A DNA stretch of 64,000 nt from Candidatus Micrarchaeia archaeon (GTDB lineage Archaea > Micrarchaeota > Micrarchaeia > Anstonellales > Anstonellaceae). The translations under genes and the position numbers were made by a program. Location of the stretch: contig JBAYHU010000002.1 in assembly GCA_041665945.1 (NCBI GenBank), positions 43,350 through 107,349 of the forward strand, read 5' to 3'. The notes below the pieces were generated by a model. It saw only the letters and a program-made list of their open reading frames with translations. It ran no database searches and had not been told where the DNA came from. Below are positions 6,300 to 55,271 of the stretch, one piece after another; within the stretch, counting starts at the first letter, position 1, and each line of letters starts with the position of its first letter.

Positions 6300-6674
6300 T
6301 TACTGCTTCTTCTTGCCTGACCTCTGTATCATTTCCAGCCTGTCCTTGGAGAACTCCCCCTCCAAAAGCAGGAGGTTGGACGGGTCCACGGGCATGAGCT
6401 TCTCGATTCCCTTCGCATTCTTCTGAGTGTAGCCCTCGACATATACCTTCAGGTCGTTGAGCTCCACTTCAAGTATCTTGCCTGTAAGCCCCTTGCGCTC
6501 GCCGCGCATTACCTTCACCCTGTCGCCCTTGTGGGCCGGGACGCTTCTGCGAGCGGTGCCGAGCTTCGCTTTCAGTTCCTTTGAAACGTGCACTGCCACC
6601 ATCTTCTTCCTCTGGTGCATGGGCGCGTTGTAGCGGAACTTCCTCTGCTTTCGCGGCTGTATTGAATTCTCCAT
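6300..6674 (-). CDS. rpl24: 50S ribosomal protein L24 (uL24)
   Basis: KOW-type L24. GTGATGATT-ATG context; start set at the ATG of MENSIQ. Confidence 0.9.
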   Translation of the reverse strand: MENSIQPRKQRKFRYNAPMHQRKKMVAVHVSKELKAKLGTARRSVPAHKGDRVKVMRGERKGLTGKILEVELNDLKVYVEGYTQKNAKGIEKLMPVDPSNLLLLEGEFSKDRLEMIQRSGKKKQ

Positions 6675-6684
6675 AATCATCACT

Positions 6685-7083
6685 TTACACTACTGCTGCG
6701 GCGATTGCCGCGACTTTGGGGAAGCGCGTCGCCACTTCGCGGGCGATGACTCCCTTGATTTCCGTGCCGACGGGCAGCCCCTGGTCGTCGATTATGACGC
6801 AGGCGTTGTCCTCGAAGGAAATCCTCATGCCGTTGGGGCGCCTGAAGTGCTGCGCCTGGCGCACCACCACCGCCTTGAGGACCTTCTTCTTCATGGCAGC
6901 GGAGCCCTTCTTGACTGCGACCGTAATTATGTCGCCGATGCCGACCTTGGGGTACATGGCGCGCTTCGCCTTTGCACCCTTCACGCCGATTATCATGACC
7001 ATCTTGGCGCCCGAGTTGTCGTTGCAAATGAGCACCGAACCGGTCTGCAGGCCCTTTGTGATGTGTCCGCCCAATCCTTTCAT
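6685..7083 (-). CDS. rpl14: 50S ribosomal protein L14 (uL14)
   Basis: Highly conserved uL14 sequence. Confidence 0.94.
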   Translation of the reverse strand: MKGLGGHITKGLQTGSVLICNDNSGAKMVMIIGVKGAKAKRAMYPKVGIGDIITVAVKKGSAAMKKKVLKAVVVRQAQHFRRPNGMRISFEDNACVIIDDQGLPVGTEIKGVIAREVATRFPKVAAIAAAVV

Positions 7084-7112
7084 AGTATCAACTTTTCATC
7101 CAACGATGGAAA

Positions 7113-7517
7113 TTATTCTTCCTTTTTCGCCTCTTCCTTCACGGGAAGCTCGGCGCGCTTGACCTCGGCTTTCTTCAGGCGGTCGGCTTCCTCGCCGAGA
7201 GCCCTGCCTCCTTTCGCTTCGATGACCACGATGCCGCGGGCGCGCTCGGTCACTTTCGTGACGGTCCACGCCTTTGTCTTTGAAATCTTCCTGCATTCCG
7301 CTATCTCGACCATGTCGCCGAGCTTCGCTCCGACCGCGTCGGGGTTGTGCACCGGCACGCGGCTCTTGCTTCTTGCGGAGCGCGCGTACTTGGGGAAGCG
7401 CTCGAGTGTCTCCCACTCGACGATGACCGTCCTCTTGGAGCGGTCGCTGACGACCTTGCCCGTGCGGACGTGCCCGCGCGGGACAATCGGGCCTTTCCTG
7501 CTTGGATTTTCAACCAT
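7113..7517 (-). CDS. rps17: 30S ribosomal protein S17 (uS17)
   Basis: OB-fold S17 with a K/E-rich C-terminal extension. Start at the ATG after GTAATATTT. Confidence 0.88.
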   Translation of the reverse strand: MVENPSRKGPIVPRGHVRTGKVVSDRSKRTVIVEWETLERFPKYARSARSKSRVPVHNPDAVGAKLGDMVEIAECRKISKTKAWTVTKVTERARGIVVIEAKGGRALGEEADRLKKAEVKRAELPVKEEAKKEE

Positions 7518-7543
7518 AAATATTACCTCGGACATTGCAAACA

Positions 7544-7816
7544 TCATTTCAGTTTCTTCGGACGGTCATATGGCCTGAACACAATCTTGTCCCCAACGAG
7601 GTCCGCGGTTTTCCCTCCGGCGAGCCGGAAACGGAAAACGCATCCCTTTTTGGGCACGGTTTTCTCTGTCCCATCCCCCGTGCGAAGCACGAGCGTGTTC
7701 TTGGTTTCGTCAACCACGATTCCCTCAAGCCCCTCATGCGGAAGCGAAAGCGCGCGTTGCACTTTTGCCCGCAGGCCGATGAATTCGTGGATGCGGAGAT
7801 TCTGCGGCGTTATCAT
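7544..7816 (-). CDS. rnp1: RNase P protein component 1 (Rpp29/Pop4)
   Basis: GIVVDETKNTLVL...KKGCVFRF matches the archaeal Rpp29 Sm-like domain. Canonical position between SUI1 and S17. The ORF finder over-extended the 5' end; start at MITPQNL with AGGTG upstream. Confidence 0.8.
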   Translation of the reverse strand: MITPQNLRIHEFIGLRAKVQRALSLPHEGLEGIVVDETKNTLVLRTGDGTEKTVPKKGCVFRFRLAGGKTADLVGDKIVFRPYDRPKKLK

Positions 7817-7827
7817 AATCGCCACAC

Positions 7828-8145
7828 CTACTGCAGGTTTTCCATGACGGTAATGCTGCCCTCGGGATAGCCGAAGTTCACCAGGGCTTTCCTGATGTTC
7901 TTGCGCTGGTCCCCTTGCAGGACAATCACGCCGTCCTTTACGGTTCCGCCGCACGCGAGCTTCTTCTTCAGTTCCTTGCCGGTCTCATCGAGCTTTGCCT
8001 TGTCGATGCCCTCGACGACTGTCACCAGTTTCCGGAACCTTTTCTTCGTCGCGTATGCGCGGATTCTCTGCGTCTCCTCCTTTTCGAGGATGTCGCAGGA
8101 GCAAATCTCCTTTATCAAACCGCATTTCGGACAGATATCAGCCAA
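7828..8145 (-). CDS. Translation initiation factor SUI1/eIF1 family (with N-terminal Zn ribbon)
   Basis: C-P-K-C-G...C-S-C ribbon plus a SUI1 domain (...GGTVKDGVIVLQGDQRKNIRKALVNFGY...). Apparent TTG start preceded by GGTGGA. Confidence 0.85.
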   Translation of the reverse strand: MADICPKCGLIKEICSCDILEKEETQRIRAYATKKRFRKLVTVVEGIDKAKLDETGKELKKKLACGGTVKDGVIVLQGDQRKNIRKALVNFGYPEGSITVMENLQ

Positions 8146-29013: not shown

Positions 29014-30474
29014 TTATCTCTTGACTCCGAGCTTTGTTACCGATTCCTCGATGTTCTTCTCGTCCTCGCCGATTGAGACCTCGCACAAAAGCGAGAGGTT
29101 CTTCACCAGCGCGCACGACGGCCCTTCAGGGGACTCGTTCGGGCAGAGCTTGCCCCAGTGCGTGCCATGCAAGTCACGCGCCTTGAAGTGCGGGTGCTTG
29201 CGGGAGAGTGGCGAGATTATCCTCCTCAAATGGGAAACTGAGGAGAGGAAGCTTGTCCTGTCAAGAAGCTGCGATACTCCGGTCTGTCCGGCAATCCAGT
29301 TGCCTGTTGCCATGGAGTAGCGGATTCTGTCGGAGAGCGCGTCAGGGCGCACGAGCGTCTGCACCGCGAGGTGCCTGCCGCGGGCGTCTGCCCTGCCTGC
29401 CTGGTAAGACACGTCTTTTACGAGGAACTGGAACGCGTAGCGGAACAGGTCCTCCATCAGGTCTCCAGTGAGCTTGATGCGCTTGTTCGCGTAGTGGTCC
29501 TTGTCGTCCTGCGGGATTTCATTGTGCGCGACCTTGATTGCGTGCTCCGCCATCTTGCAAAGGTAGCGCGCTTTCCGCATGCGGTCCTCCGCAGTCGTCC
29601 CGATGTGCGGAAGAAGGTAAGTGTCAAGGAGGATTTCTGCGCGCTTCTCGCGGTAGTCTTCAGCCTGCGAGGGCGCGGCTTTCCTTCCGAGGAAGTCGAT
29701 TGCGGACTTGCGGTCCGTTGTCGTGTCCGCCTCCATGTTGAGAAGCATGTCGTTCTTCACGTTGCGGTCGTCTGCGAAGACTGCGAGTATTTCGTTGTTC
29801 TTCTCAAGCCCGAGCGCGCGGAGAGTCGAAGTGAGCGGGAGGTCTTTTGGAGAAGCGGGGAACACGACTCTCATGAGCCCCTCGTTCGTGCGCTCGACCA
29901 CCGAGCGTGCGCGGAAGCCGAAGCGCGTGGAGAATACTTTCGCGGTGATGAGCGTGTTGTCCTTTTCGCGCGTGCACATGATGCGGTTGGGCGCAAGGTC
30001 TTCAATCGAAGTGAGAACGCGCTCGCTTCCGTTGATGATGAAATATCCGCCCGGGTCGGCAGGGTCCTCGCCCGCTTCAATCAGCTCGTCAGGGCTCATG
30101 TTGTCGAGGTAGCAGAGCTTGGATTTTACCATGACGGGCAGTTCGCCGATGAAAACTTCCGAGAAAGTCGTTTTTTCAACGCCGTTGAAAACAGGGATTA
30201 TCTCGAGGAAAATGGGTGCTGCATAAGTGAGGTTGCGGAGGCGCGCTTCCGAGGGCGTGATGGTGCGCTGCGCGCCGTCAGCCTCGATGATTTTCGGCTT
30301 CTCGAGGCGGATTTGCCCGAAGCGAAGCTCGAATCCCTCGACTGAGGGCTGGATTGTGCCGACGCGGTTGACCACCTGCTGGAGGCCGAACTCGATGAAC
30401 TTGTTGTACGAATCAAGGTGCTGTTTTACCAGGCTGTTGTCCTTGAAATATGCTGTGAGCAGTTCTCCGCGCAT
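29014..30474 (-). CDS. rpoB2: DNA-directed RNA polymerase subunit B'' (N-terminal half of Rpo2)
   Basis: Rpb2 N-terminal homology, 486 aa. Split B is a euryarchaeal/DPANN-type arrangement. Confidence 0.96.
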   Translation of the reverse strand: MRGELLTAYFKDNSLVKQHLDSYNKFIEFGLQQVVNRVGTIQPSVEGFELRFGQIRLEKPKIIEADGAQRTITPSEARLRNLTYAAPIFLEIIPVFNGVEKTTFSEVFIGELPVMVKSKLCYLDNMSPDELIEAGEDPADPGGYFIINGSERVLTSIEDLAPNRIMCTREKDNTLITAKVFSTRFGFRARSVVERTNEGLMRVVFPASPKDLPLTSTLRALGLEKNNEILAVFADDRNVKNDMLLNMEADTTTDRKSAIDFLGRKAAPSQAEDYREKRAEILLDTYLLPHIGTTAEDRMRKARYLCKMAEHAIKVAHNEIPQDDKDHYANKRIKLTGDLMEDLFRYAFQFLVKDVSYQAGRADARGRHLAVQTLVRPDALSDRIRYSMATGNWIAGQTGVSQLLDRTSFLSSVSHLRRIISPLSRKHPHFKARDLHGTHWGKLCPNESPEGPSCALVKNLSLLCEVSIGEDEKNIEESVTKLGVKR

Positions 30475-30852: not shown

Positions 30853-30922
30853 AGGATTCCTAATCAAGAAGGGCTCAGGAGAAACGGAATTTAAACGGCA
30901 CAAAGAAACATAGTGATATTTG

Positions 30923-31888
30923 ATGAGCACCGACAGTAAACCAGAACTAGACGCCTATCCCGGGCTTGTCTCAGACACCTTTTCCAAGATTTTTACCGCA
31001 ATGCGGCAATTTCTGGCTAGCAAGAACATCGTAATAACTCCCGAGTTTACCTTTTTCTTCGCACTAGCCGCGTACATCTTTTTAGATAACGACATAACTA
31101 ATATAGCATCCAAACTAAATACGCCTACAATCGTAATACTGACTCTTGTGGGTCTAAACCTGCTGTGGCCCAACCTCCCACAAATAAAACGCACGATTTT
31201 CAGCACTGATGAAGAAAAATTGAATAAAATACTAAAAATATGCAATGAACAGGAAGCGTTAAGCAAGTTGGGTAATTTTTTAGCAAGTAGTGGAACGGAA
31301 CTAAAAATAACCAAAAAAATATTTTCAAGAAGATTTGCAGATAACTATGAAGCATATGATTTATTTTTCAAGAATGTTAGCATGGATGAAAGCGAGGTTA
31401 ACTACCTAATACAGAGAAGAGTCATAAACAAGCCATTTTTCAACGAATTGTTGATGGAGAATTTTTTGGCTAAAACCCCTTGGACGATTTCTTATTCGAC
31501 CTATCAAAAATTAAAGCAGATCATACGAGAAAGAAACTTCTCTAGCCGCATAAGAAAATTATTCAACTACAGATATTGCAGATATAGTGATGGTTCATTA
31601 AAACAAACTGTTTTGATTCATGAACGAGAAAAAGCATATCTGATAGTCAGAAAATTACTTATGATAATGTTGGCAGCATCGGTCGCGGCGATATACATTT
31701 TTGGCGCAGTTGCGATAATTAGCGCACAGACTCCTCAAAATGCAGCCATGACTACCCAAATAGCCAATGTGGTAGAAGCTTCAGCTGCACTTTTTGCAAT
31801 AGGAATCGCTCTGCTGATCATTATTCATATTGTAAATTGGTTCATGAAACAGTTGTTCCTCCAATTCTTAGTTAAAGATACAATTTAG
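30923..31888 (+). CDS. Low-GC (about 35% GC) multi-TM hypothetical protein (321 aa), probable horizontally acquired gene
   Basis: Strong compositional contrast with the roughly 60%-GC flanks, yet the ATG is preceded by the native-type GTGATATTT-g context. About 4 TM helices (2 N-terminal, 2 C-terminal) with a soluble middle domain. No family recognised. Confidence 0.65.
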   Translation: MSTDSKPELDAYPGLVSDTFSKIFTAMRQFLASKNIVITPEFTFFFALAAYIFLDNDITNIASKLNTPTIVILTLVGLNLLWPNLPQIKRTIFSTDEEKLNKILKICNEQEALSKLGNFLASSGTELKITKKIFSRRFADNYEAYDLFFKNVSMDESEVNYLIQRRVINKPFFNELLMENFLAKTPWTISYSTYQKLKQIIRERNFSSRIRKLFNYRYCRYSDGSLKQTVLIHEREKAYLIVRKLLMIMLAASVAAIYIFGAVAIISAQTPQNAAMTTQIANVVEASAALFAIGIALLIIIHIVNWFMKQLFLQFLVKDTI

Positions 31889-52128: not shown

Positions 52129-52689
52129 TCACTTATTCGCAACGATATCCGCGACTTGGTAGGTAAGCGAATTTATCGAAGCGTTGATATTCGTTGAAAG
52201 CCTCGCCTTTGCCGCGTCGCACTCGGTTATTATGGAGCAGCGGTTGAAGTCCAGCCAGCTTCCGTAGACCGGCGTGTCCTTAAGCGAGATGATGAGCGCC
52301 TCGAGGCGCTTGATTTTCGGGGTTGTCGGAACCTTGCCGGGCCCGTACGCGTCGTCGAAGTAGGTCTGCACGAGCTTGTATTGGGCTATGAGGTCGGTTT
52401 TCACGCGGGCTGCGGCGAGCACTTCCGAGCCGTCCTTCAGCGTGGCTATCTGCTCCTGCTGGTCGGAAATCAGGGTTTCAGTCGCCTTCCTCGCGTCGTT
52501 GCAGTCGTCCAGCTGCGTCTTGCAGCTGTTCACGCGCGACGTCATGGAATCAAGCGCCGCGGTGGATTCCGCTTTTTGCAGGGCGCATGTTGCCGCCAAA
52601 TCGTCGTATTTCGACTGCGGCACGGTGGCTGCGCAGCCGGCAAGAAGAATGATGCAGGCGATAATGGCGAATGCCGACGTCTTTTGCAT
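52129..52689 (-). CDS. Putative lipoprotein (186 aa), coiled-coil rich
   Basis: Signal peptide with lipobox LLAGC. Multiple conserved Cys in the mature part. A TATA-like TTTATATTATATATAG lies 22-37 nt upstream. Confidence 0.6.
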   Translation of the reverse strand: MQKTSAFAIIACIILLAGCAATVPQSKYDDLAATCALQKAESTAALDSMTSRVNSCKTQLDDCNDARKATETLISDQQEQIATLKDGSEVLAAARVKTDLIAQYKLVQTYFDDAYGPGKVPTTPKIKRLEALIISLKDTPVYGSWLDFNRCSIITECDAAKARLSTNINASINSLTYQVADIVANK

Positions 52690-52744
52690 GAGAAGGAAAT
52701 GCGCCCAGCTTTTATATTATATATAGATGGAGAAGCGCGAGTGT

Positions 52745-52801
52745 GTTAAGTTGGTGCTAACAGTGTTAACAACGTATTAACATTTATAAACTCTTGTTAA
52801 T
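52745..52801. promoter_or_regulatory. Array of GTTAACA-like half sites (GTTAAG, GCTAACA, GTTAACA, ATTAACA, GTTAATA) at about 10-bp phasing, overlapping TATA box TTTATAAA (52783-52790)
   Basis: Five related heptamers within 57 bp, immediately upstream of the wHTH regulator-grpE-dnaK operon. The palindromic GTTAAC core and one-helical-turn spacing suggest an operator. Confidence 0.45.
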
Positions 52802-52822
52802 AAGGAATTGACAGTGAGTGAT

Positions 52823-53263
52823 ATGGAAAAGGAAAAGACCTCGATGGTTGCAAGAAAGCCGCCCGCGCAGGACGCGGACACCGAGCTTGTCGAGCTTTGC
52901 AGGATGATGAGGCTCATGTCCGAGCGGGACGTGGATGCCACGCTTGCGCAGGTGCTCAAGACCATGATGGTTTCAGCCCGCGACCGCCCCGTAGGTGGGA
53001 GCGAGCTTGCCAAGGCGTCGGGAATCAACAGGATAACTATCATACACCACCTCAAGCGGCTTGAAATCGCGGGCTTCGTGCGCCGCGACGAGGGCAAGTA
53101 CGTGATGCGCGTGCATTCCGCCGAGGGAATGCTTGTGGAATTCCGCAAGGAGATGGAAGAGGCGTTCGCCGAGATGGACGAGCTTGCCCGCGAAATAGAC
53201 CAGCAGTTCGAGCAGGCGGGCAGGGGCGCGGTGGACATAAACAGGCGCAGGCGCCTGCCTTAG
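52823..53263 (+). CDS. Winged-helix transcriptional regulator, first gene of grpE-dnaK operon (candidate heat-shock regulator)
   Basis: wHTH ...GGSELAKASGINRITIIHHLKRLEIAGFVRRDEGKYV... followed by a C-terminal coiled coil. GTGAGTGAT-ATG context. The ORF finder started 5 codons upstream at a TTG. Confidence 0.65.
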   Translation: MEKEKTSMVARKPPAQDADTELVELCRMMRLMSERDVDATLAQVLKTMMVSARDRPVGGSELAKASGINRITIIHHLKRLEIAGFVRRDEGKYVMRVHSAEGMLVEFRKEMEEAFAEMDELAREIDQQFEQAGRGAVDINRRRRLP

Positions 53264-53276
53264 GGGTTGCAATCTT

Positions 53277-53864
53277 ATGAACAAGAACGAAACGCGCACG
53301 GAAAACGCTGCAAAACAGGCGGCAAACGACACCGAGCACTCGCAGTCGAACCTCGTGCCCGGGCAGGAGGATGCGGAAAAGGAGCTTTCGGAAACGACTG
53401 ACCGACTGCTTCGCCTGACGGCGGAATTCGACAATTACAAGAAGCGGACGGCAAAGGAGAAGGAGCAGCTCGCGATTCATGCCGAAGGGAAGCTCATGCT
53501 CCAGTTCCTCCCGATTTACGAGGAAATTGCGCTTGCGGAAAAGGAAGCGGCAAAGGTGAAGGAAGAGGCGGTGCGCGAGGGAGTGCTGATGGTGCTCTCC
53601 AAACTGCGCGCGGCGTTCGAGAAGGAAGGCTTGCAGGAAATGAAGCTCGACGGCGAGAAATTCGACCCGTACCGCCACGAAGTCGCGCTTCGCGAGGAGT
53701 CGGACGCGCCGGAAGGCGAGATTGTGAGGGTAATACAGAAAGGGTATTTGTTCAAGGGCGCCGTGCTGCGGCACGCGATTGTTTCCGTTTCAAGCGGAAA
53801 AAAGGCAAGCGGGATGAAAAAAGCGGATGATGCTGACGAAAAAACCGAACCGGAGAAAGAGTGA
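53277..53864 (+). CDS. grpE: Nucleotide exchange factor GrpE
   Basis: ...LLRLTAEFDNYKKRTAKEKEQ... is a GrpE signature. 195 aa. Confidence 0.9.
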   Translation: MNKNETRTENAAKQAANDTEHSQSNLVPGQEDAEKELSETTDRLLRLTAEFDNYKKRTAKEKEQLAIHAEGKLMLQFLPIYEEIALAEKEAAKVKEEAVREGVLMVLSKLRAAFEKEGLQEMKLDGEKFDPYRHEVALREESDAPEGEIVRVIQKGYLFKGAVLRHAIVSVSSGKKASGMKKADDADEKTEPEKE

Positions 53865-53873
53865 GGTGGGAAC

Positions 53874-54206
53874 ATGCAAGGATTTGCAATAGTCAAGCTC
53901 GAAGCCGACAACGTCGCGGTTGAGGAAAACGTTGTCCAGCAGTTCAACGAGTACATGCAGAGAACCGAAAAGACGCAGTCGTTCGTCCATGACGGGGAAG
54001 GGTATTTCCGCATGGCTTACAGCGAGAAAGTCGGCATGACGTCCGCCCCGATTGAGACGTTCGGGAATTTCCTGCTCTCAAGCGGGTATTCGGTGAACGG
54101 GATATCGAGCGCGAACACGATTGACGGGGAAAACGGAACCATGGTTTCGTTTGAAAAAGGCGGAAAGGAGGCGCACGTGACGCTTTCCACCGTGAGAATA
54201 TATTGA
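53874..54206 (+). CDS. Hypothetical protein (110 aa) inserted between grpE and dnaK
   Basis: SD GAGGTGGGAAC-ATG. No recognisable family. Confidence 0.55.
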   Translation: MQGFAIVKLEADNVAVEENVVQQFNEYMQRTEKTQSFVHDGEGYFRMAYSEKVGMTSAPIETFGNFLLSSGYSVNGISSANTIDGENGTMVSFEKGGKEAHVTLSTVRIY

Positions 54207-54219
54207 GAAGGCGATGACC

Positions 54220-55257
54220 ATGGCTATCGATGAAGAAAAAATTCTCAAGAATACCGATGCATACACGGCAGTTATGTTCGGAGGCTTGTTCGGCGCGTTT
54301 GTAGGAATAATTTTTTCTCTGTTCATTCTTCCATTTACACTTAGGGGCACTGATGGAAGAATAATGTATTTTGCAACTGAAACTCCTATGACTTTGCCTT
54401 TGCAATTCGACCAATGGCAGGTGTTTGTACTTGGAATGTTTCTAGTGTTTTTAGTGTTGTTTGCAGTAATGGCTACGATATTTCAAACACTCCTAAGATG
54501 GAAAAGCAATGCGCTTAAGGACGTAAAATTGCCTGCAGAATACATCAAAAAGAACATTTACTGGATAGTTGGCATAGGTCTTTTGGTTTCCTTTGGAATA
54601 GTAGGTTGGGACTCCACAAAAATTATCGCCCTATCTACTGTCGCATACACTCTGATGACGATGTTGTTAGTTCTAGAGAATAAAGCGATGAGAGAAGCGC
54701 AGACAGAACCTAGAATGTCAGTATATCTAAAACCAAGAGAAGAATCGATAAATCTGATGGATTTGAATGTTGAAAATATCGGTATGGGGCCTGCCTTTGA
54801 CATCAATTTTAAGATAGAACCAGATTTTGCCTGCATGGGAACCGGTAATCTTTCAACGATACTAAACAAGATAGCGTATCTCACACCGAAAAATACTAGG
54901 AGCGTATTCCTCACTAGCATGCTGGACAACTTTGAAGAAAAAAAGAAGACAAAACTTCTCGTTAAAGTTAGTTATAAAGATAAAAACGGAAAGCAATACA
55001 CAGAAGAATTTACCTTAGATTTCTCTGAATTCGTAGGACTAACCCAGATAGGGAAACCGCCTCTTCATGAAATAGCAGATAATACTGAGAAAATTAGTAA
55101 GGCAATTGAGGGCATACTCTCGAGTTCTGATAGTTTCAGAAAGCCAGAGATTATCGTAACAACAAGAAAAGAGATTGCAGATGAGCGCCAAAAATTAACA
55201 AAGGAAATGAAAAAGAAATTTGAAGCACAGAAGAAAGAGAAACAAAATAATGTTTGA
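54220..55257 (+). CDS. Low-GC (about 38%) membrane protein (about 345 aa) inserted between grpE and dnaK
   Basis: Marked AT-richness relative to its flanks. Four TM helices, then a K/E-rich soluble domain. Its stop is immediately followed by the dnaK SD. Confidence 0.6.
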
Positions 55258-55271
55258 AAAAGGTGATTGGA

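Follow-up and report, generated by a model that had tools for sequence, protein, structure and literature searches.

The question raised by this locus is how two genes came to lie between grpE and dnaK in a Micrarchaeota archaeon, and whether the two arrived there in the same way. The locus lies within a 64,000-nucleotide (nt) stretch of contig JBAYHU010000002.1 from a Candidatus Micrarchaeia archaeon, referred to here as the window. Within it, five genes follow one another head to tail on the plus strand, encoding a winged helix-turn-helix (wHTH) regulator, GrpE, a protein of 110 amino acids (aa) from the open reading frame ORF110, a membrane protein (ORF347) and DnaK. An earlier note, made from the letters of the window, had described two genes between grpE, which ends at 53864, and dnaK, which starts at 55272, and the ORF coordinates are as it gave them; it had regarded both as insertions into a heat-shock operon. 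We consider it likely that the two interval genes have different histories, ORF110 having been inherited and the AT-rich membrane gene acquired. In particular, comparison of sequences indicates, with high confidence, that the membrane gene, a mobile accessory gene, represents a recent and strain-specific insertion, whereas ORF110 is native. The former is called an insertion because it is absent from 22 related loci, in which the gap between ORF110 and dnaK is 11-116 nt, and because of its low GC content at third codon positions (GC3). The claim of insertion thus holds for the membrane gene and fails for ORF110, which is a conserved member of the operon across the Micrarchaeota.

Related loci were collected from the contigs of ORF110 homologues and from scans of GTDB genomes and JGI metagenomes, and were compared by tblastn with the proteins of the window. 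This gave 24 loci (L001-L005, L014-L017, L021, L022 and L025-L037), 22 of which hold both ORF110 and the start of dnaK; the matches in the GTDB scan were metagenome-assembled genomes (MAGs) of Anstonellaceae and of Micrarchaeota/Micrarchaeia. The order wHTH-grpE-ORF110-dnaK is found in every one of the 24 loci that is long enough, mostly following the gene for LonB and a 186-aa gene, both on the minus strand. The wHTH regulator, at 60-89% identity, is always directly 5' of grpE in every locus that reaches that far upstream, and ORF110 lies between grpE and dnaK wherever both genes are present (22/22). The distance from ORF110 to dnaK in these loci compares with 1065 nt in the window, and tblastn revealed no extra gene between the two in any of the 22. 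In the nearest relative, L021, in which ORF110 is 91% and the first 210 aa of DnaK are 98% identical, the gap is 13 nt and the junction reads TAA-CT-AGGTGATGGAA-ATG-TCAAAAATAATCGG. A synteny comparison had been proposed in which relatives carrying the same two genes at normal GC content would speak against insertion; this is what the relatives display for ORF110, and it is not what they display for the membrane gene. The view that both genes are ancestral and that the membrane gene was lost in the relatives has its presence in the window in its favour, and nothing else. With DnaK identities across the 22 loci spanning 82-98%, absence from all of them would require many independent and precise losses, and long residence cannot be reconciled with a GC3 of 0.376 where the neighbours have about 0.70. 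An ancestral membrane gene is effectively refuted, and we regard the whole scenario as extremely improbable.

Base composition also separates the two genes. The membrane gene has a GC content of 0.375 and a GC3 of 0.376, in comparison with 0.563 and 0.709 for grpE, 0.523 and 0.694 for ORF110, and 0.572 and 0.720 for dnaK; the neighbours of the membrane gene have GC values of 0.52-0.60 and GC3 values of 0.64-0.78. A 300-nt GC profile, which had been suggested as a check on the anomaly, falls at about 54150-54300 and rises again at about 55200-55350, so that sharp steps mark both ends of the gene and the anomaly is real. Among the 45 ORFs in the window that begin with ATG and encode at least 200 aa (median GC 0.573), there are two outliers, both at 0.37, with the next lowest at 0.521; these are the membrane gene and ORF322 (30920-31888). 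Within the interval the anomaly is limited to the membrane gene, and ORF110 is compositionally native. The description of the former as a protein of roughly 345 aa, about 38% GC, four transmembrane (TM) helices and a K/E-rich domain was accurate, given its GC content, its four hydrophobic segments and its K/E-rich tail.

The junctions of the insert preserve the translation signals of the operon. A Shine-Dalgarno (SD) sequence of the type GGTG(A/G)-N4-5-ATG precedes each downstream gene of the operon, and the intergenic gaps are 9 nt between grpE and ORF110, 13 nt between ORF110 and the membrane ORF (from the ATG at 54220) and 14 nt between the membrane ORF and dnaK. The left junction reads TGA-GA-AGGCGAT-GACC-ATG-GCT, and its length of 13 nt and its layout are those of the native ORF110-dnaK spacer of L001, L021 and L022 (13 nt, AGGTGAT-N4-ATG). 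The right junction reads TGA-AAA-AGGTGAT-TGGA-ATG-TCAAAAATAATCGG. Here the stop codon of the membrane gene, TGA at 55255-55257, is followed by AAA, AGGTGATTGGA and the ATG of dnaK, and the SD and start of dnaK are retained, AGGTGATTGGAATG in the window matching AGGTGATGGAAATG in L021. The observation that this stop abuts the dnaK SD, leaving the dnaK signals in place, was therefore exact. The first ATG of the membrane ORF is at 54214 and would give 347 aa, and that at 54220 gives 345 aa, as in the NCBI call (P0001). The second is the likelier true start on sequence grounds, since the ATG at 54214 falls inside the SD AGGCGAT; starting from 54220 yields AGGCGAT-N4-ATG, with a spacing equal to that of dnaK. 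The left SD module, being GC-rich in a way that the remainder of the insert is not, appears to be host-derived. The two SD-N4-ATG modules, AGGCGATGACCATG and AGGTGATTGGAATG, agree at 9 of 14 positions, and no other similarity between the flanks was found; either a short duplication of the target or capture of dnaK's translation start by the incoming ORF could produce such a likeness. As evidence for a target duplication it was set aside, since all SD modules of the operon look alike and a resemblance of this kind follows from their function. An exact 12-nt direct repeat, GTTTGAAAAAGG, occurs at 54149-54160 and 55252-55263, the latter copy taking in the dnaK SD and the stop of the inserted gene. 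It was rejected as an insertion scar: with the copy at 54149 located within ORF110, 46 nt short of the stop codon, the pair does not bracket the insert and is probably due to chance. Illegitimate recombination is the default assumption for the mechanism.

It could be argued that the insert is a chimeric join made during assembly. The source is a MAG, the inserted protein is 100% identical to an NCBI protein of a Candidatus Micrarchaeia archaeon MAG that is on record from a single contig, and no near-identical copy of ORF347 was found among the JGI metagenome contigs. However, an artefact would need two breakpoints within one 13-nt spacer and would have to rejoin the locus it had left with the orientation unchanged, and it would have to leave functional SD-N4-ATG modules at both junctions with an ORF that fills the interval exactly. 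We therefore rate an assembly error as very improbable. A search of plasmids for a donor of the gene gave one weak hit, and a scan of IMG/VR with the family alignment, in which one narrow pattern was used, gave no match.

The sequence of events that we favour would be as follows. A Hsp70 operon specific to the Micrarchaeota, wHTH-grpE-ORF110-dnaK, would be run from one conserved promoter/operator upstream of the regulator. The AT-rich 345-aa gene would have been acquired recently by single-gene horizontal transfer, landing in the 13-nt spacer between ORF110 and dnaK. A host-like SD-N4-ATG module would then have stood before the incoming ORF, with another retained before dnaK, and the inserted gene, having no room for a promoter of its own, would depend on transcription of the operon. 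As an event, the gain of a mobile accessory gene by horizontal transfer is ordinary. What is unusual is that the site lies inside an Hsp70 operon in a reduced DPANN genome, and that the gene belongs to so large and anonymous a protein family.

The inserted protein has four hydrophobic segments, at aa 18-36, 69-87, 112-130 and 135-153 in the 345-aa numbering, and its AlphaFold2 (AF2) model places helices at 7-43, 67-103, 108-128 and 134-163. The mean predicted local distance difference test (pLDDT) score is 77. Residues 168-269, with pLDDT values of 69-96 that are at least 87 in most 10-residue blocks, are modelled as a seven-stranded beta-sandwich, followed by two long helices. The tail is rich in K and E, with 15 K+R and 12 D+E in 65 aa. 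The beta-sandwich and tail are probably cytoplasmic by the positive-inside rule, because basic residues follow the anchor helix and occupy the loop between TM2 and TM3. Foldseek returned weak generic matches only, to TM-helix plus immunoglobulin (Ig)-like folds in the PDB and to uncharacterised phage proteins in BFVD, and a family profile run against PDB sequences met only designed coiled coils, in the helical tail (best E 1.5e-07).

No Pfam or NCBIfam family matched the membrane protein. It does match phrog_11802 (E 1.8e-23, aa 135-341 on profile positions 21-227 of 230) and phrog_9607 (E 5.4e-11), neither of which has an assigned function. A profile of the first homologues recovered 46 proteins by means of a word index, and an exhaustive search with it of 1.84 billion representatives gave 4,659 clusters, defined at 50% identity and drawn from bacteria, archaea and phages, at E <= 1e-3, and 2,051 at E <= 1e-10. 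A profile of 37 homologues built without the query recovers aa 133-342 of the protein at E 7e-69. Members have a median length of 226 aa (typically about 190-240 aa) and as a rule one N-terminal TM; one TM is predicted in 158 of 193 members and four or more in 3 of 193. The copy in the window, with 345 aa and four TMs, is consequently a rare extended form that does not match the typical architecture, and its fourth TM corresponds to the conserved anchor helix of the family. Internal duplication was considered as the source of the extension: BLASTP gave a hint that TM2 is like the anchor helix, but the family hidden Markov model scores -2.5 bits on the N-terminus, and the idea was dropped. In the shared part, the invariant anchor-helix residues T142, Y145, T149, L152 and E155 are kept, and with their i/i+3/i+7/i+10/i+13 spacing they would share one helical face. 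Further invariant residues in alignments of 38 and 5 sequences (T164, N188, G190, G192 and A194) are all present, as are the juxtamembrane motif ETRxxRxxQTEP and, inside the beta-sandwich, the loop N188-I-G-x-G-P-A194 (NIGxGPA).

Phages are prominent among the contexts in which the family occurs. Matches by tblastn include ORF1 of the Z-region of P2-EC53, the P2-like phage R18C, and the SPbeta-like phages Goe12, Goe13 and Goe14. The P2-EC53 ORF1 (CAD54906; E. coli WP_001572865), annotated as a 'putative lysogenic conversion protein', is 27% identical to the window protein over aa 148-327 (tblastn, E 3e-6), and the two are homologous over the anchor helix, beta-sandwich and helical tail, both being solitary genes; the phrog_11802 match of the window protein covers this part as well. 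ORF1 occupies a known moron/defence hotspot, the variable Z/fun locus of P2-like prophages. It differs in having 230 aa and no N-terminal extension, and in being carried by a prophage of a bacterium; the window gene lies on an archaeal chromosome within a chaperone operon, and phage genes are absent from its surroundings. The homologue of R18C and that of E. coli strain 2452, the latter being the only chromosomal copy that was inspected, lie between the tail-fibre assembly and tail-sheath genes, a position that in phage P2 belongs to the variable Z/fun locus. The E. coli homologue is found in 105 of 5,426 complete genomes, once per genome. P2 hotspots are established reservoirs of anti-phage genes (PMC9122126), and genes of unknown function from the hotspots of P4 satellites, when tested, often protect against phages (PMC13586616).

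Seven metagenomic contexts of the family were also read, a small sample with no statistical control. In three of them (L020, L023 and L024) the homologue is inside a type I restriction-modification (R-M) operon, in the order hsdR - small genes - homologue - hsdS - hsdM, and the neighbours of these embedded copies include SMODS+patatin genes resembling a cyclic-oligonucleotide-based anti-phage signalling system (CBASS-like) and Fic, HicB-like and McrBC genes. Another copy forms an operon with a DUF5655/NucS_C protein on an archaeal contig, one is near a Cas4-like/DUF2779 gene, and one lies beside transposases, the outer flanks differing between two Fervidobacterium contigs. The homologues are richer in AT than the sequence around them, as in L009 with a GC content of 0.297 against 0.424. 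Members of the family travel singly, as accessory genes of phage moron hotspots and defence islands. The PrrC anticodon nuclease is an accessory defence gene embedded between hsdR and hsdS/M, and the three R-M-linked members hold the same position; they differ in that the family has no sequence or domain similarity to PrrC or other known embedded effectors, and the copy in the window is not near R-M genes.

Because the family occupies phage moron hotspots and defence islands, a role in virus exclusion or abortive infection is the leading hypothesis for the inserted protein, which may on this association be a membrane-anchored accessory protein of that type; we hold the assignment only tentatively, as a possibility that falls somewhat short of probable. 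If the proposal were true, the family would represent an undescribed membrane-anchored anti-virus system of a single gene, acting by exclusion or abortive infection, with a four-TM variant wired into the Hsp70 stress operon and its expression under the heat-shock/proteotoxic-stress regulator; ORF110 would, independently, be a new cofactor of GrpE and DnaK specific to the Micrarchaeota. In our estimation it is rather unlikely that the family forms a new membrane defence system of one gene, that ORF110 is a new chaperone cofactor, or that both hold. A literature search turned up no paper that mentions P2-EC53, WP_001572865 or phrog_11802, or that names the family.

A second explanation is that the gene is a selfish or neutral passenger of no benefit to the host, perhaps even slightly costly by polarity on dnaK, which persists only because the surrounding operon is too important for the cell to disrupt. 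As a single gene it was seen on one contig of one genome, other members of the family occur here and there, AT-rich and solitary, in contexts unrelated to one another, and T runs within the insert could reduce dnaK expression. Its persistence could also be understood if, as we infer, imprecise deletion from a 13-nt spacer would endanger the dnaK translation signals. However, the ORF is intact over 345 codons with all family-invariant residues present, the strong motif conservation across some 4,600 clusters implies selection on the protein, and the recurrence in R-M operons and moron hotspots suggests a selected accessory function. A mere passenger therefore seems unlikely, if deserving of serious consideration. 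The earlier note had offered either a stress-induced membrane factor or a hitch-hiking selfish gene, and the contexts of the family, in phages and defence islands, are closer to the hitch-hiking mobile gene than to a stress function.

Several observations weigh against a recently acquired mobile gene with a defensive role. Repeat searches over 53800-55700 found no terminal inverted repeats and no bracketing direct repeat. No transposase or integrase is present, the 1,065-nt interval consisting of the membrane ORF and two spacers of 13-14 nt with no space for a second gene, and no clear target duplication was found at the insert. The window protein has no match in PADLOC-DB v2.0.0 at E <= 1; five homologues, P2-EC53 ORF1 included, have none below E 0.05, and none of these has a Pfam family. 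Defence contexts are not universal, as the copy in L019 is solitary, between an extracytoplasmic function (ECF)-sigma operon and argG in housekeeping surroundings. The three-TM N-terminal extension has no detectable relatives, so that the mode of action here may not be that of the one-TM majority. In archaea, oligo-T tracts can bring transcription to an end, and the only sense-strand T runs of at least 5 between the regulator and the stop of dnaK, at 54311 and 54448, are both inside the insert; it is possible that they attenuate read-through and impose some polarity on dnaK, and a cryptic promoter for dnaK could likewise be present in the insert. The T runs carry no weight as evidence of selection, since their counts are those that composition predicts (0.34 and 1.11 expected, 0 and 2 observed).

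The expression of the acquired gene is most likely governed by the operon. Upstream of the regulator, alignment of six Micrarchaeota lineages reveals long invariant blocks, with the shared sequence GTGTGTTAA-N8-CTAACAGTGTTAAyAnCGTATTAACATTTATAAA-N4-TGTTAATACAATGTTGACAG, and this region is the only conserved non-coding element of the locus. A TATA-like TTTATAAA is embedded in TGTTAA/TTAACA inverted repeats, and the region is nearly invariant in the six lineages. TGTTAA-N4-10-TTAACA has a single occurrence in the 64 kb (52764-52782) and none in 100 shuffles. The element looks like an autoregulated promoter for the whole operon, and the TGTTAA..TTAACA repeats are probably the binding site of the operon's own regulator, making them a candidate archaeal heat-shock operator. 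Co-transcription of the inserted gene with the operon, as the earlier note supposed, is the default expectation because gaps of 13-14 nt leave no room for a separate promoter or terminator.

Such an arrangement raises the possibility that the membrane protein has been recruited as a heat-shock or membrane-stress factor working with GrpE and DnaK. It resides inside the Hsp70 operon with translation signals of the host pattern (AGGCGAT-N4-ATG), and LonB, a membrane-bound quality-control protease, is encoded nearby. Chaperone genes are nevertheless found in none of the other contexts of the family that were examined, the absence of the gene from all 22 related operons implies that the operon works without it, and its composition has undergone no amelioration. 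Recruitment of this kind appears improbable.

ORF110 presents a different picture from the acquired gene. It had been called an orphan with a strong SD of its own; the SD, GAGGTGG, overlaps the grpE stop, and 21 homologues of 102-127 aa exist, at 48-91% identity. An alignment of 22 sequences has 22 invariant columns, among them G43-Y-F-R46 and a C-terminal LSTxxxY. On account of these homologues, the conserved gene order and its normal GC3, ORF110 is best described as a vertically inherited, lineage-specific member of the Micrarchaeota Hsp70 operon. In L001, L002 and the window 9-12 nt separate it from grpE, and in L004 there is a 4-nt overlap with the grpE stop; this short spacing or overlap suggests that its synthesis is coupled to that of GrpE. 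The AF2 model (pLDDT 89.3, predicted template modelling score 0.83) has a predicted beta-alpha-beta-beta-alpha-beta-beta-beta topology, preceded by a short extra helix at residues 13-17. Foldseek found no PDB match to this fold at E <= 0.001, a sequence-profile search of the PDB gave no match, and no Pfam, NCBIfam, PHROG or PADLOC profile matched above threshold.

ORF110 probably acts together with the chaperone system, and from the position of its gene it may reasonably be guessed to serve DnaK, DnaJ and GrpE (KJE) as a lineage-specific cofactor or adaptor. It is no substitute for DnaJ; a canonical dnaJ is present in L016, a Micrarchaeia lineage, where a 376-aa DnaJ is encoded 3' of dnaK after a 185-aa ORF (region 6388-8103); it is in L016 only that dnaJ is found two genes downstream of dnaK. 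In the 64-kb window tblastn detected no J-domain, and in the window and its close relatives alike dnaJ is not linked to dnaK. DafA of Thermus thermophilus is a small protein of the dnaK operon that assembles the DnaK-DnaJ complex. ORF110 is likewise small, lineage-restricted and encoded inside an Hsp70 operon, a likeness that is positional only; it has 110 aa as against about 78 aa for DafA, and is predicted to have a mixed alpha/beta fold.

DPANN archaea possess a bacterial-type DnaK-DnaJ-GrpE system that was acquired by transfer (PMC8204110). The operon described here resembles the bacterial-type (hrcA-)grpE-dnaK-dnaJ operon in that grpE and dnaK are intact and on the same strand, after a repressor-like gene and a palindromic operator. 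It differs in that the regulator is a small wHTH protein and not HrcA, in that a conserved 110-aa gene separates grpE from dnaK, and in that dnaJ is not adjacent in the window. The premise that grpE-dnaK adjacency is nearly universal was overstated, as in E. coli grpE is unlinked to dnaKJ.

Nothing here overturns current understanding. The locus provides a clean and datable case in which a single accessory gene entered an important chaperone operon at a 13-nt spacer and left it unbroken, and it shows mobile 'guns for hire' borrowing host expression signals even in tiny DPANN genomes. It also draws attention to a very large unnamed family for which, given its positions in phage hotspots and R-M operons, a new function in defence or exclusion is a reasonable proposal, and to a layout of the Hsp70 operon that is the Micrarchaeota's own, comprising a wHTH regulator, a palindromic operator and a 110-aa protein that is a candidate new chaperone cofactor. 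The features of the locus are collected in Table 1; the coordinates come from the list of window ORFs, and the window proteins were checked against Pfam, NCBIfam, PHROG and PADLOC profiles.

Table 1. Features of the Hsp70 operon and its insert (positions are those of the window)
Feature	Position	Strand	Evidence or remark
Promoter/operator region	52735..52812	+	TATA-like TTTATAAA between TGTTAA..TTAACA inverted repeats; conserved
Winged-helix (ArsR/TrmB-like) regulator, first operon gene	52808..53263	+	Weak Pfam matches to TrmB and HTH_5; likely start ATG 52823
grpE	53277..53864	+	Pfam GrpE, E 1.3e-34
ORF110 (110 aa)	53874..54206	+	Small protein conserved within the lineage
Left junction, 13-nt spacer GA AGGCGAT GACC, then ATG 54220	54207..54219	+	
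Inserted AT-rich gene, 345 aa (347 aa from 54214)	54220..55257	+	phrog_11802 family
Four predicted TM helices of the membrane ORF	54271..54678	+	Hydropathy peaks, AF2 helices
Ig-like beta-sandwich of the membrane ORF, aa 168-269 (347-aa reading)	54715..55020	+	AF2
K/E-rich helical C-terminal tail of the membrane ORF, probably coiled coil	55060..55248	+	AF2 helices 283-303 and 318-345
Right junction AAA AGGTGAT TGGA, retained dnaK SD and spacer	55258..55271	+	
dnaK, intact	55272..57155	+	Pfam HSP70, E 1.7e-225; 92% identity to L001 over all 627 aa
T-rich stretch 3' of dnaK, probable operon terminator	57156..57250	+	T runs of at least 5 at 57161, 57219, 57235 and 57243

The surroundings of the operon have features of their own. 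An archaeal LonB (TIGR00764, E 3.5e-259) is encoded upstream on the opposite strand, and between it and the Hsp70 operon lies the 186-aa gene (52129-52689, minus strand), whose lipoprotein-like product has an N-terminal hydrophobic stretch followed by a Cys. All related loci long enough to include this upstream stretch carry the gene, which evolves fast (33-58% identity) and belongs to no family. In two relatives the space between it and the wHTH gene contains an insertion: in L035 (934-2169, minus strand) a 411-aa gene that by eye resembles OrfB/TnpB of the insertion sequences IS200/IS605, and in L031 (1679-2293, minus strand) a gene whose 204-aa product bears a pilin-like class III signal sequence. 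The neighbourhood of the operon thus takes up insertions, though never, in the relatives, at the ORF110-dnaK spacer. Directly 3' of dnaK is a gene for an SLT_2/MltB-like lytic murein transglycosylase (57323-58408, plus strand; Pfam E 4.4e-20), with a copy of 47% identity in L001 and none detected in the other related loci. The presence of a bacterial cell-wall hydrolase in an archaeon without murein of its own is noteworthy.

The second low-GC gene of the window, ORF322 (plus strand), is solitary and has a GC content of 0.37 and a GC3 of 0.39. Kinship with the membrane gene of the Hsp70 operon was considered and rejected, as there is no similarity between the two. The C-terminal part of its product is hydrophobic, and it has no Pfam, PHROG or phage match. 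It adjoins a gene for RNA-polymerase subunit B (29014-30474, minus strand), and is probably another recent acquisition.

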